A DNA stretch of 32,000 nucleotides from an uncultured Desulfurococcales archaeon (GTDB lineage Archaea > Thermoproteota > Thermoprotei_A > EX4484-217-1), in contig CAYOTT010000004.1 of NCBI GenBank assembly GCA_964406965.1, positions 115,790-147,789 of the forward strand, read 5' to 3'. The notes under the pieces were generated by a model. It had not been told where the DNA came from and did no database searches. It saw nothing but the letters and a program-made list of their open reading frames with translations. Below are positions 16,011-20,038 of the stretch, piece by piece. The position numbers and the translations under genes are program-made. Within the stretch, counting starts at the first letter, position 1. Each line of letters starts with the position of its first letter.

Positions 16011-16252
16011 TACTCTCTTATCCTTCTATAGTTTAGGGTGAGCGAGAGAATATAAATTTTAACTTATACGACTCTAGAAACTTATTCTCTAAAAACAAGG
16101 TACTCAAATACTTTAGATAAGCTTATAACTAACGTTATTGCCACTGCAATTCCAAAGAGTATAGCTAGCACTTCAGCTCCCCAAAAGTAAAGTAGAGGGG
16201 TTTATAAAGTGAAGAGACCCTACTGAAACTATCGGCTAACAAAACGGAAACA

Positions 16253-16258
16253 TTTAAA
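16253..16258 (+). promoter_or_regulatory. Candidate TATA box for tRNA-Asn
   Basis: TTTAAA starts 36 nt upstream of the mature 5' end. Confidence 0.35.
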
Positions 16259-16288
16259 CCCTCACAGAATTAATACTGATTAGGCGGT

Positions 16289-16408
16289 GCCGGGGTAGCT
16301 CAGCTAGGTAGAGCGCCGGGCTGTTAACTGGCTGGTGGGAGGTTCGAGTCCTCCCCCCGCCGGGGAGAAACCCGGTGGTCGGAGGTTCGAGTCCTCCCCC
16401 CGGCGCCA
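16289..16408 (+). tRNA. tRNA-Asn: tRNA-Asn (anticodon GUU) with a 43-nt intron at canonical position 37/38 (16327-16369); CCA encoded
   Basis: Acceptor GCCGGGG/CCCCGGC, D arm GCTC/GAGC, anticodon stem CCGGG (16316-20) / CCCGG (16371-75), loop CTGTTA|intron|A, T arm GGAGG-TTCGAGT-CCTCC, G73, CCA. There are 7 nt on each side between the anticodon stem and the intron helix CTGGC (16328-32) / GCCGG (16359-63), which fits bulge-helix-bulge geometry. Confidence 0.85.
16327..16408 (+). repeat. Tandem duplication (period 43 nt) of the tRNA-Asn 3' half: degenerate copy 16327-16365, functional copy 16370-16408
   Basis: An ungapped alignment of the two 39-nt units gives 31/39 identity by hand count. 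This includes the 22-nt identical run GGAGGTTCGAGTCCTCCCCCCG (16338-59 versus 16381-402). Confidence 0.85.
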
Positions 16409-16431: not shown

Positions 16432-17019
16432 TCATTTCTCTATTAGCTTATGTCTCTTAAGCCTATTTTCCATCATACCTATTTCTTCTTGAGGAAAATA
16501 CTGTAGTAGTTTCGCTACTTTTTTCCTATTTAACTTAAGATAGCCTTCTTTAACCAATTGGCTTATTCTATTTAAGTCTTGGTCGTCTATGTCCCTACCT
16601 ATCCTTGACTTTAAAACAACATATGCTTCAAGTGTTAAGTGTTTCAGCTTATACTCTCCAACTCTAATGCTTCTTACCTCATTATTCACTATTTCCTGTG
16701 GTATGTAGAAGTCATGTATGTTCTCGTAGAAATCTATGAAGAACTCACCCATTTCCTTAGGTATAACGAGTCTAGGTGTTCCATAGTCAGTATATGCATA
16801 ATCCCAGCCTGCCATTAAAGCTATGTTTTTAAAAACATCTTCTTCAAGAAATGGGCTTCTATTTGTAACGAAAAAATCTAGATCTTCACTATCCTTAAAG
16901 AAACCTCCGAGCTCTAAAGAAACAATAGTGCTTCCAACAACAACAGCTTCTATATCGTTATCTTTAAGTAAAGGGAGAAGTTCGCTAAGCACCTCTCGAA
17001 GTTCGTCAAATAAAGGCAT
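16432..17019 (-). CDS. Nucleotidyltransferase-fold protein (minimal NTase, DUF2204-like)
   Basis: 195 aa. The N-terminal VVGSTIVSLELGG...SEDLDFFV matches the GS...[DE]xD NTase pattern. Family assignment is tentative. Confidence 0.5.
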   Translation of the reverse strand: MPLFDELREVLSELLPLLKDNDIEAVVVGSTIVSLELGGFFKDSEDLDFFVTNRSPFLEEDVFKNIALMAGWDYAYTDYGTPRLVIPKEMGEFFIDFYENIHDFYIPQEIVNNEVRSIRVGEYKLKHLTLEAYVVLKSRIGRDIDDQDLNRISQLVKEGYLKLNRKKVAKLLQYFPQEEIGMMENRLKRHKLIEK

Positions 17020-17152: not shown

Positions 17153-17262
17153 GCCGGGGTGCCCGAGCGGCCTAGGGGACGGGCTGCAGTGGAGTATTCC
17201 ACAAATTCCGCCCACCGGTAGAAACCCGTTTTACCCGGGTTCAAATCCCGGCCCCGGCTCCA
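17153..17262 (+). tRNA. tRNA-Cys: tRNA-Cys (anticodon GCA) with a 34-nt intron at 37/38 (17190-17223); U73 discriminator, CCA encoded
   Basis: Acceptor GCCGGGG/CCCCGGC, anticodon stem ACGGG (17179-83) / CCCGT (17225-29), loop CTGCAG|intron|A, 5-nt variable loop, T arm CCGGG-TTCAAAT-CCCGG, U73 (a Cys identity element). A BHB can be drawn with central helix CTGC/GTAG (17218-21) and 3-nt bulges at both splice sites. Confidence 0.8.
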
Positions 17263-17559: not shown

Positions 17560-17697
17560 GGGCCCGTAGCTCAGCCAGGGAGAGCGGCGGGCTCCAGACC
17601 CGTTAAAGTACGGGTCTGCTGACCTTTAAGGGATGACTTAGGTCTGGAGCTGGGAGAGACCCGTAGGTCGGGGGTTCAAATCCCCCCGGGCCCACCA
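17560..17697 (+). tRNA. tRNA-Trp: tRNA-Trp (anticodon CCA) with a 61-nt intron (17598-17658 if placed at 37/38); CCA encoded
   Basis: Acceptor GGGCCCG/CGGGCCC, D arm GCTC/GAGC, anticodon stem GCGGG (17587-91) / CCCGT (17660-64), loop CTCCAG|intron|A, T arm GGGGG-TTCAAAT-CCCCC, A73, CCA. BHB: central helix CTCC (17592-95) / GGAG (17653-56) with AGA bulges at both junctions. Confidence 0.88.
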
Positions 17698-18724: not shown

Positions 18725-20038
18725 ATGGAAACTACTTACAAGAAATATTTCGCAAAAGACATAAAGCCTGAGCTTAACGGTAAAAAAGTTATTCTTGCAG
18801 GATGGGTTCACATAAAAAGAGACCTTGGAGGGAAAAAATTCCTGATTTTAAGGGATAAAACAGGAATAGTTCAGCTAATTTTTACTAAAGGAAAAACATC
18901 TGAAAACCTCATAAAAACATTCTATGAGCTTACAAGAGAGAGTGTAATAAAAGTTACTGGAGTAGTGAAGGCAACACCTAAAGCGCCAGGAGGAGCTGAA
19001 GTAGAACCCTTAGAAGTAGAAGTCTTAAACATAGCTAAAACCCCGCTTCCACTAGATGTGACAGGAAAAGTTCCAGCAGACTTAGACACTAGACTTAACA
19101 ATAGAGTTCTTGATTTAAGAAGAAAAGAAAGCCAAGCAATATTTAAAATACAAGACACCGTACTTAAAGCAATAAGGGAAAAGCTGAGGGAACTAGGATT
19201 TATAGAAGTTATTACACCAAAAATTATAGCAACAGCAACGGAAGGCGGAGCCCAACTATTCCCCGTAATATACTTTGGTAAAGAAGCTTTCCTAGCCCAA
19301 AGCCCACAGCTATATAAGGAATTACTCGCAGGAGCCTTTGAGAGAGTTTTCGAAATAGCTCCAGCATTTAGAGCTGAAGAATCGGACACACCATATCACC
19401 TTTCAGAGTTCATTTCAGTAGATATTGAAGCAGCCTTCATGAACTACCATGATGTAATGAGGGTTTTAGAAGAAGTAATAGATCATGTACTATTTAAGGT
19501 TAGGAAAGAGAATTCAGAAGACTTAAAAATTTTAAAATATGAAGACAAATTCCCAAAAATTAAGAGACCCATAAAGAAGATAACGTATGATGATGCAGTA
19601 GATTTACTTCAAGAACACGGATACCCTATTAAGAGAGAAGAAGACTTAGACACACCAGCTCAAAGGAAACTTGGAGAAATTATTGGAGAAACATTCTACT
19701 TCATCATAGACTGGCCTACAGCCACTAGACCCTTCTACACTATGCCTAAAAAAGATAATCTAGAAAGAACAGAGTCATTCGACATAGTATATAGCTGGCT
19801 TGAAATAGCTTCTGGAAGCACTAGAGTCCATACAAGAGACTTGCTTGAAAAACAACTTAGAAGACAAGGACTTAATCCAGAAAATTTCGAATACTTCCTA
19901 AAATGGTTTGATTGGGGAATGCCTCCTCATGCGGGCTGGGGACTAGGTCTTGGAAGACTTATGCTCATACTTACAGGTGTAAGAAACATTCGAGAGGTAG
20001 TGCTATTTCCAAGGGATAAGAAAAGACTTACACCATAA
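18725..20038 (+). CDS. aspS: Aspartyl-tRNA synthetase (archaeal/eukaryal type, class IIb)
   Basis: 437 aa: N-terminal OB anticodon-binding domain, class II motif 2 [15 protein letters not shown], motif 3 GWGLGLGRL. Confidence 0.9.

Follow-up and report, generated by a model that had tools for sequence, protein, structure and literature searches.

A tRNA-Asn intron homologous to the 3' half of its own gene in uncultured Desulfurococcales

The tRNA-Asn gene and its intron

The tRNA-Asn(GUU) gene of an uncultured Desulfurococcales archaeon lies at 16289-16408 on the plus strand of the 32-kb stretch analysed here (from contig CAYOTT010000004.1 of assembly GCA_964406965.1; the whole stretch is called the window, and coordinates are positions in it) and is 120 nt long with its intron and 77 nt without. 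The 43-nt intron (16327-16369, +) is located between tRNA positions 37 and 38 and consists of a degenerate direct copy of positions 38-73 of the same tRNA, followed by a tail of 6-7 nt that is not part of the repeat. The 5' exon (16289-16326, +; positions 1-37) can be read directly as the acceptor strand GCCGGGG, the D arm, the anticodon-stem strand CCGGG (16316-20, +) and the loop nucleotides C32 U33 G34 U35 U36 A37 (16321-26, +). The 3' exon (16370-16408, +; positions 38-76) completes a perfect cloverleaf with A38, CCCGG, the variable loop TGGTC, the T arm, CCCCGGC, the discriminator G73 and a CCA end that is encoded at 16406-08, as it is in the remaining tRNA genes of the window. About 30 nt 5' of the mature end, at 16246-16261 (+), stands a putative archaeal promoter with a purine-rich B recognition element and a TATA-like box (GGAAACATTTAAACCC). 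The motif GAAAC(A/T)TTT(T)AAACCC is kept in the four lineages described below (groups A-D) while the flank around it has diverged, and it is from this position and conservation that a promoter function is suggested. As there is a single conserved upstream element, one transcript would be expected to span both copies of the 3' half.

The original prediction, made from the letters of the window, was that the intron repeats the 3' half of the tRNA, and comparison base for base confirms it: 16327-16365 is identical to the real 3' half, 16370-16408, at 31 of 39 positions without a gap, the period of the repeat (43 nt) equals the length of the intron, and a 22-nt run, GGAGGTTCGAGTCCTCCCCCCG, is the same at 16338-16359 and 16381-16402. 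A repeat search sets the limits at 16326-16362 and 16369-16405 (32/37 identical, spacing 43). The binomial chance of at least 31 matches in 39 at a fixed offset is ~1e-10, and the local-alignment score of 50 compares with 11.5 +/- 2.2 for shuffled sequences, none of 5000 shuffles reaching it (z = 17). The whole window has no second direct repeat that is 25 nt or longer with its copies within 300 nt; Tandem Repeats Finder, for which there are fewer than two full copies, gave no report of this one. The same 43-nt intron, with two to three substitutions, is found in two independent assemblies that are ~93% identical to the window over 8-12 kb (L007 and L128), so it is not an assembly artefact. 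On these alignments the homology of the intron body to tRNA positions 38-73, as opposed to a chance likeness, can be regarded as secure.

As had also been stated, the upstream copy is degenerate, with CTGGC in place of CCCGG in its anticodon-stem strand and CCCCGCC in place of CCCCGGC in its acceptor strand. The pseudo anticodon-stem strand CUGGC (16328-16332, +) has diverged from CCCGG and forms the 5' strand of an intron helix, h', by pairing with GCCGG (16359-16363, +). The pseudo T arm, GGAGG TTCGAGT CCTCC (16338-16354, +), is the tip of the hairpin; all its 17 positions agree with the real T arm (16381-16397), and it caps the intron hairpin in constrained and in free folds. The pseudo acceptor 3' strand CCCCGCC (16355-16361, +; CCCCGGC in the real copy) also gives its 3' part to h', and the GGAG that follows (16364-16367, +) pairs with C32 U33 G34 U35 as the 3' strand of the central helix of a bulge-helix-bulge (BHB) motif, before the 3' bulge at 16368-16370. 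Differences between the copies cluster at h' and the hairpin (CCCGG to CUGGC, UGGUC to UGGUG, CCCCGGC to CCCCGCC), which fits an intronisation under selection. The tail GGGAGAA, the last 6-7 nt of the intron, lies outside the repeat and agrees with the 3' trailer CCACCTT or the loop CTGTTA at no more than 1-2 of 7 positions; a seamless tandem duplication of 43 nt alone therefore does not account for the 3' splice site.

The BHB geometry that had been proposed at 37/38 is found as described. Pairing of CTGGC (16328-32) with GCCGG (16359-63) leaves CUGUUAA and GGAGAAA on the two strands between h' and the 5-bp anticodon stem, which is helix h. Between these, C32 U33 G34 U35 face G16367 A16366 G16365 G16364 as C-G, U-A, G.G and U.G, so that three of the four positions pair and the predicted G-G mismatch at G34 is indeed present. 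The 3-nt bulges, U36 A37 A16327 and A16368 A16369 A38 (A16370), lie on opposite strands. With its 37/38 position, two 3-nt bulges, four-position helix and flanking h and h', the sequence has all the elements of the hBHBh' motif. The intron hairpin comprises 13 bp in total, with one U.C mismatch, one bulged U and a T-loop as its cap. The cut may also be written as 38/39, 16327 and 16370 both being A; the BHB geometry places it at 37/38, and removal of the intron restores CUGUUAA between CCGGG and CCCGG.

The proposed course of processing starts from one promoter, which would give a transcript with the 5' half followed by two 3' halves, first the pseudo one and then the real one. The pseudo copy would fold into the 13-bp hairpin with its T-loop, CUGGC pairing with the GCCGG of the pseudo acceptor end, and the base of this hairpin, the central helix (CUGU/GGAG) and the true anticodon stem would together form the hBHBh' motif. 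The splicing endonuclease would then cut after A37 (16326/16327) and before A38 (16369/16370), and ligation would produce the 77-nt tRNA. The predicted spliced junction, on the D-loop background of group A, joins ...GGGCTGTTA to ACCCGGTGGTC, and that of a circularised intron would join ...GGGGAGAA to ACTGGCTGG.

Orthologous introns in related lineages

Relatives of the locus were collected in two ways. A genome collection was scanned for the tRNA-Asn anticodon-arm pattern, and relatives are taken from among the matches listed; metagenomes were scanned for the end of the 5' exon and the opening 21 nt of the 3' exon with any 25-55 nt between them, a pattern that leaves the content of the intron unconstrained. 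The metagenome scan returned 14 contigs with introns of 30-49 nt. L007, from the matches listed in the genome collection, is the uncultured Desulfurococcales metagenome-assembled genome GCA_964564025.1, with 93% identity to the window across 8 kb; its exons are identical to those of the window and its 43-nt intron differs by two substitutions, one of which changes a C-G pair of h' to U.G while the other strikes the mismatched position of the central helix.

Sorted by flank and synteny, the sequences fall into four groups. Group A (the window, L007 and L128) has the 43-nt intron, group B (L124, L129, L130, L131, L134 and L136) introns of 30-38 nt, group C (L123, L127, L132 and L133, plus L148 and L149, which were obtained via the neighbouring aspartyl-tRNA synthetase, AspRS) introns of 34-35 nt, and group D (L125 and L135) introns of 49 nt; L126, with a 30-nt intron, is unrelated. 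In groups A-D the locus is orthologous and shares the order tRNA-Val, tRNA-Asn, DUF2204, tRNA-Cys, L40e, tRNA-Trp, AspRS, TruD. Divergence from the window, measured on the non-discriminating AspRS, increases from group A (protein identity 97%, 18-21% of four-fold degenerate sites differing) through group B (89%, 50-59%) to group C (82%, 66%) and group D (81%, 69%), and between A and C or D the synonymous sites are near saturation.

Over this range the 77 exon nucleotides are invariant, save for a D loop that is 1 nt shorter in groups C and D and for the CCA of L124. The 5' exon is the same in L007, L128 and group B, differs in C and D by the D loop only, and matches the intron-less tRNA-Asn genes of L140 and L079, two relatives introduced below; the 3' exon is the same in every contig of groups A-D, with the one exception in L124. 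Exon identity in the face of near-saturated synonymous sites implies strong purifying selection on the tRNA-Asn gene. A decaying pseudogene, which the original prediction had named as the outcome that would undo it, can be rejected on this ground, the exons having stayed constant across lineages (B-D) with 50-69% four-fold differences; by the conservation of its sequence, the tRNA-Asn(GUU) gene appears to be functional.

Comparison of the introns extends the splicing geometry to these lineages. None of 21 different tRNA-Asn introns is at odds with the central helix: at pair 32 they have C-G without exception, at pair 33 U-A or U.G, at pair 35 U-A or U.G (U.U in group C), and at pair 34 G-C or G.U everywhere except in group A, where alone it is a mismatch with G or A as the partner (at 16365 the window has G, while L007 and L128 have A). 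All four positions pair in groups B and D. Helix h' has 5/5 pairs in all nine sequence variants of groups A and B, and all changes in it preserve pairing (U.G to C-G, U.G to U-A, G-C to G.U, C-G to U.G). The crenarchaeal (alpha-beta)2 splicing endonuclease accepts relaxed BHB motifs (PMC6379350), and by analogy the BHB of the window, slightly relaxed by its mismatch, should be within the tolerance of crenarchaeal EndA.

The likeness of intron to exon is not confined to the window. Introns match their own 3' exon significantly in 11 of the 14 metagenome contigs (z = 4-15), and the expectation that orthologous introns should show similarity to the T arm is borne out even for introns of other lengths (30-49 nt). 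Introns of groups A and B have GGGAGGTTCGAGTCCTCC in common; group C has GGAGGTTCAAGTCCTCT and variants of it, with CCGG kept at an exon-like spacing after the T stem, and group D has GGAGTTTCGAGTCCTCT. The longest and best-preserved copy is that of the window's lineage, and the intron of group B resembles that of group A minus ~1-4 nt from the 5' strand of the hairpin and 4 nt (CCCC) from the 3' strand. L129 and L130 keep h' and the hairpin and have replaced the T-loop by unrelated loops, with exons and BHB intact; the intron of L126 is an unrelated hairpin.

The T arm has been retained more faithfully than its age would lead one to expect. It is identical to the exon at 17/17 positions in the window, in L007 and in four of the six members of group B, at 16/17 in L128, at 13-15/17 in group C and at 15/17 in group D, while the neutral expectation for a 17-nt segment after 0.8-0.95 substitutions per site and lineage is ~46-51% identity (P <=0.03 per lineage, each taken separately). 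Within groups the introns change at about the synonymous rate: 2/43 differences between the window and L007 against 5% at four-fold sites of DUF2204, 3/38 between L131 and L134 against 2%, and 3/35 between L127 and L133 against 9%. Preservation of the T-arm copy beyond neutral drift points to gene conversion from exon to intron or to selection on the hairpin. The loss of the T-loop in L129 and L130, the broken equivalent of the G53-C61 pair in L123 and group D and the shifted fold of L123 favour conversion over a mimic that is required, and occasional exon-to-intron conversion between repeats 43 nt apart is, as far as the sequences go, the most likely way in which the T-arm core is kept.

Outside the four groups, the nearest syntenic outgroup that has the gene, L140 (AspRS 64% identical), carries an intron-less tRNA-Asn in the same neighbourhood, and three more relatives among the matches listed, L001, L020 and L079, have near-identical exons and no intron; the loci of these three and of L126 share no protein genes with the window. 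In Desulfurococcaceae farther off, including Desulfurococcus and Thermogladius, introns of 24-29 nt occupy the same site of tRNA-Asn. Two of these short introns, those of the Desulfurococcales L013 and L035, hold pieces of their own T arms that are unlike those of the window, GGGTTCGAAGCC facing exon GGGTTCGAATCC in one pair and GGGGTTCA facing GGGGTTCA in the other, and seem to track the variant of their own exon, a hint of recurrent copying or gene conversion.

Origin of the intron

Archaeal tRNA introns, and by descent eukaryotic ones, have been explained as relics of tRNAs once made in two pieces, as products of transposition or as by-products of mobile-element integration, and they are usually so short and so diverged that where they came from can no longer be recognised. 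In the present case it can: the intron is the gene's own 3' half, and the locus thus offers sequence evidence for introns formed from a gene's own DNA. We think it probable, if by no means assured, that this is one functional tRNA-Asn gene with a canonical BHB intron that was built by local tandem duplication of its own 3' half and then intronised. A small clade of uncultured Desulfurococcales-like Thermoprotei would owe the duplication to its ancestor, and the upstream copy would then have been intronised by substitutions that built helix h' and by a reshaping of the tail to pair with the anticodon loop; at least four lineages would have inherited the intron, indels shortening both strands of the hairpin in step, and the T-arm core would have stayed near-identical to the exon through occasional conversion or, alternatively, selection for a stable hairpin. 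The shared register, a period equal to the intron length and a start at the first intron nucleotide are what a plain tandem duplication leaves behind. The earlier claim that the intron was created by partial gene duplication stands in so far as there is a real 37/38 intron with a body homologous to the gene's own 3' half; it does not stand as a recent or single-genome event, since the intron is old and clade-wide, with a T-arm core that has been kept or refreshed while the rest diverged.

The closest concept, by analogy, is intron gain by internal tandem duplication, which has been proposed and documented for spliceosomal introns. There, too, the intron is homologous to exon, the period equals the intron length and the sequence after the splice site is copied (A-C-U-G-G and A-C-C-C-G-G here); the case differs in that a protein endonuclease reads an RNA structure, so that a BHB fold is needed which duplication alone does not supply. 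As a working part, the intron appears from its sequence to be an ordinary canonical archaeal tRNA intron, and it is in content and origin that it is unusual. It shares with BHB introns that are cut by EndA and joined by RtcB the 37/38 position, the bulges, the four-position helix, the flanking helices and a normal cloverleaf, and it departs from them in having a body that copies positions 38-73 of its own tRNA, intact T arm included, and a G.G in the central helix. In the searchable literature, which leaves key subscription papers outside its scope, no description of a BHB intron copied from the 3' half of its own tRNA was found. In Thermoproteales, transposed tRNA introns are similar to those of other tRNA genes, according to the summary of Fujishima et al. 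2010 given in PMC4090602; as far as that summary goes, they are a parallel in being an 'intron-late' gain of BHB introns at the DNA level in Crenarchaeota and differ in that the Asn intron resembles its own exon and that the three introns of the window are mutually dissimilar. The related lineages present a series of states, from a near-complete copy (A) through a copy shortened in both strands (B), the T arm only (D) and an unrelated hairpin (L129, L130) to no intron (the outgroup L140), and through this series a duplication route to BHB introns can be tested. A further question that it poses is whether a T-arm copy in an intron is kept by conversion between repeats spaced 43 nt apart or by function.

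Several points weigh against an origin by duplication and intronisation. The tail of 6-7 nt resembles neither the 3' trailer nor the anticodon loop: the homology is in register with a period equal to the intron length, but the junction is not seamless, which calls for a later reshaping or for an intron end that is older. When the duplicate arose, the 3' half in use would have been the upstream copy, and a BHB would have been needed before that copy could decay, which implies several steps. The intron-less outgroup state comes from the single syntenic outgroup recovered, L140, and same-position tRNA-Asn introns exist in other Desulfurococcales (L013, L035, L037, L089, L104 and L111), so the intron may predate the copy. 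Conversion is deduced from retention alone, the T arm of the exon being the same in all four lineages. As to splicing, the G.G at G34 (G.A in L007 and L128) and the terminal U.G make this the weakest BHB of the set; the predicted cleavage, ligation and exact junctions are those indicated by geometry and conservation. Finally, the pre-tRNA has its minimum-free-energy fold not in the cloverleaf but in a rod formed by pairing of one T-arm copy with the other (-75.6 kcal/mol; native fold, -60.0 kcal/mol), so that the duplicate carries a risk of misfolding, a cost that is a possible reason for the shortening of the copy in other lineages.

Some of these points are met by another reading, which we consider a serious possibility though not a probable one: that a short canonical intron is older, and that its interior hairpin was overwritten by the downstream exon, through gene conversion or template switching, leaving the old BHB ends in place. 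At 37/38, the introns of L013, L035, L037, L089, L104, L111 and L126 start with AC(C/U) and end in a tail that suits the central helix, and the non-repeat tail GGGAGAA then needs no extra steps. The intron ends ACUGG(C/U) and CCGGG.AGA are common to groups A and B, and the middle differs between them just as if an exon tract, UGGUC...CCCCG, had taken its place in A. The introns of L013 and L035 carry T-arm pieces of their own, GGGTTCGAA (p ~0.0015) and GGGGTTCA (p ~0.014), and retention of the T arm far above the neutral level calls for conversion in any case. Yet the sole syntenic outgroup, L140, and the three relatives with near-identical exons are intron-less, the constraint of pairing with an invariant CUGUUA loop can account for the likeness of intron ends across orders, and in group A the similarity runs in register from the first intron nucleotide, with a period equal to the length, just as tandem duplication predicts. 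Between creation and overwriting by duplication, it is the homology that the sequences make secure and not the event that produced it.

A second gene in the window bears on how general such copying may be. The tRNA-Cys(GCA) gene at 17153-17262 (+), which was missed by ARAGORN and by a default Rfam run and revealed in the E-value mode of Rfam, has a 34-nt canonical intron (17190-17223, +) that holds CAAATTCCGCCCACCGG, to be compared with CAAATCCCGGCC-CCGG in its own 3' exon (the end of the T-loop, the 3' strand of the T stem and the acceptor strand). The score of this match is reached by 27 of 5000 shuffles (p ~0.005). In the group B orthologue from L136 the corresponding sequences are GGTTAAAATCCCGCCCACCG and GGTTCAAATCCCGGCC-CCG, with z = 7.2 and none of 2000 shuffles reaching the score. 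The Cys sequences within a group are not independent and amount to one or two observations; they suggest that the process which copies exon into intron may not be specific to tRNA-Asn. An intron family common to tRNA genes can be rejected, as the Asn, Cys and Trp introns of the window, three in all, have no significant pairwise similarity. We tentatively propose, while regarding it as a possibility that may well fail, that self-copying of the 3' half into the anticodon loop recurs in this clade and creates or rewrites BHB introns, with strong evidence in Asn, weaker evidence in Cys and possibly further cases in the Asn genes of other Desulfurococcales. If this is true, archaeal tRNA introns can arise by a self-templated route of which these loci are living intermediates, and the retained T-arm mimic may also act in the folding or processing of the pre-tRNA. 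There is an intron in the tRNA-Cys of the outgroup L140 as well, and it shares the motif CCGCCC.

That the T-arm-like hairpin is kept for a function of its own is unlikely in our judgement. It could be a mimic of a tRNA minihelix that recruits or titrates processing or modification enzymes which bind the T-loop, a very stable scaffold that presents the BHB at ~90 degrees C, or a stable circular intron RNA. In support of a function, the T-arm core is kept at 13-17/17 across near-saturated lineages in which the rest of the intron is unalignable between groups, the group A hairpin of 13 bp with a 7-nt T-loop has the size of an acceptor-T minihelix, and the substitutions in the loop keep R57 (G to A in group C) or fall at the variable position 59 (L128). 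Nonetheless, the T-loop is dispensable, as L129 and L130 have swapped it with exons and BHB intact; the universal G53-C61 pair is broken in L123 and group D, L123 folding in a shifted register; the T-like sequence of L013 is not folded as a T arm; and among recent substitutions the T-arm copy is hit at much the same frequency as other parts of the intron (2/9 differences).

The original prediction had offered two further origins, and neither is upheld. The repeat could be the scar of an element that integrated in the 3' half of tRNA-Asn at an attachment (att) site of the SSV1 or pNOB8 type, lost its interior and left its upstream copy to become the intron. Integration of archaeal viruses and plasmids does take place in the 3' part of tRNA genes and leaves that part directly repeated (44 bp in SSV1; PMC3293823), a model of intron gain through mobile elements has been put forward for the tRNA-Thr of Caldiarchaeum (PMC3293823), and recent tRNA rearrangements in Desulfurococcales have been attributed to mobile elements (PMC3218864). 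Like an att repeat, the one described here is a direct duplication of the downstream part of the tRNA that begins in the anticodon loop; it covers 37-39 nt, with two 37-nt copies that are 86% identical, and the tRNA-Cys gene has a similar, weaker feature. Against this, a search around tRNA-Asn found no integrase or other element gene between or beside the copies, which stand only 6 nt apart, the degenerate upstream one lying within the transcript as an intron; four diverged lineages have stably inherited the arrangement, their loci being syntenic, and a near-complete and precise internal deletion of the element would be required. An exact-pattern scan of IMG/VR viral contigs for either copy gave 0 matches, and BLAST against phage and plasmid collections returned only ordinary tRNA-Asn genes, with no attP-like match, a negative that is weak in that the viruses of this uncultured clade have probably not been sampled. 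An integration scar is very improbable. The other proposal, a permuted or split-tRNA intermediate, drew on the identity of GCCGGGG at 16359-65 and at 16289-95. The identity is real, but it is not conserved (GCCGGGA in L007 and L128, GCCGGGT in group B) and is explained by helix requirements, so it lends such an intermediate no support. Split and permuted tRNA genes do occur in Desulfurococcales and Thermofilum, the same broad taxon, with recent rearrangement of tRNA halves around BHB junctions (PMC3218864); the gene of the window is contiguous and co-linear, with one conserved promoter and no trans-splicing or permutation, and the proposal was rejected.

There remains the question of which copy serves as the tRNA. 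The Rfam tRNA model reports 16289-16362 in the window (44.8 bits) and intron-spanning matches in the relatives of groups B-D (60-62 bits), and BLAST aligns intron-less tRNA-Asn genes to 16289-16362. The 5' half joined to the upstream copy has, however, C.C and G.G mismatches in the 5-bp anticodon stem, C.C in the acceptor stem and no CCA, and by nearest-neighbour energy its cloverleaf (-28 kcal/mol) compares poorly with the native fold with BHB and intron hairpin (-60 kcal/mol). The spliced sequence, on the other hand, equals the intron-less tRNA-Asn of L079 and L140 except in the D-loop, at T-loop position 59 and in the acceptor stem of L140. That an uninterrupted 16289-16362 is the working tRNA and the downstream copy a leftover can be dismissed with near certainty, given three stem mismatches and the lack of the CCA that all other tRNA genes of the window encode, an upstream copy that gathers substitutions and indels beside an invariant downstream one, and the complete lack of a pseudo acceptor strand in groups B-D, where the downstream copy alone can complete the tRNA, so that splicing would be required; the same near certainty applies to chance or convergence as the source of the whole similarity, at a match probability of ~1e-10.

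Annotation and neighbouring genes

Genes of this kind are easily misread. With introns allowed, ARAGORN, too, arrives at a tRNA of 77 nt by taking out exactly 43 nt, but it cuts 4 nt upstream (16323-16365) and calls a 'tRNA-Ser(AGA)'. This frame was rejected, because the body is the tRNA-Asn of the relatives, there is no long variable arm and the BHB is ignored. The intron-bearing tRNA-Asn genes of the window, L128, L133 and L136 are labelled 'tRNA-???', 'tRNA-Ala', 'tRNA-Ser' or 'tRNA-Leu' by the same program. In practice such genes are mis-annotated by ARAGORN, and Rfam takes the pseudo half in the window.

The six tRNA genes of the window have ~70% G+C in DNA of 36.5% G+C, and high tRNA G+C in a low-G+C genome is typical of a hyperthermophile. 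The tRNA-Trp(CCA) gene at 17560-17697 (+) has a 61-nt intron at 37/38 (17598-17658, +), which starts with ACCCGT, the first 6 nt of its own 3' exon, and holds the box C/D-like motifs GGATGA and CTGA, presumably as in the known guide RNA of archaeal tRNA-Trp introns; Rfam, run on the window, gave no C/D family match for this intron. In relatives from groups B and C (L148 at 1814-2760; also L133, L136, L142 and L146), the 5' part of tRNA-Trp, GGGCCCGTAGCTCAG...GCGG, lies 0.3-0.87 kb upstream of the rest. The gap in L148 contains a 222-aa open reading frame (1951-2619) with a LAGLIDADG_3 match of 28.7 bits, against a Pfam cut-off of 22.5, and it looks like a second intron near 30/31 that may carry this reading frame, one that the tRNA-Trp of the window does not have.

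The immediate neighbours of tRNA-Asn are genes for a metallophosphoesterase, tRNA-Val and the DUF2204 nucleotidyltransferase. The gene for the non-discriminating aspartate-tRNA(Asn) ligase (18725-20038, +) lies 2.3 kb 3' of tRNA-Asn, in a conserved cluster with TruD, PTH2 and three intron-containing tRNA genes, and we take it to encode the enzyme that charges tRNA-Asn through the transamidation route. The DUF2204 gene (16432-17019, -) is inverted relative to AspRS when compared with the outgroups L137 (4405-4980) and L140 (4557-5117), which implies that the region around these tRNA genes has been rearranged in the window's clade.

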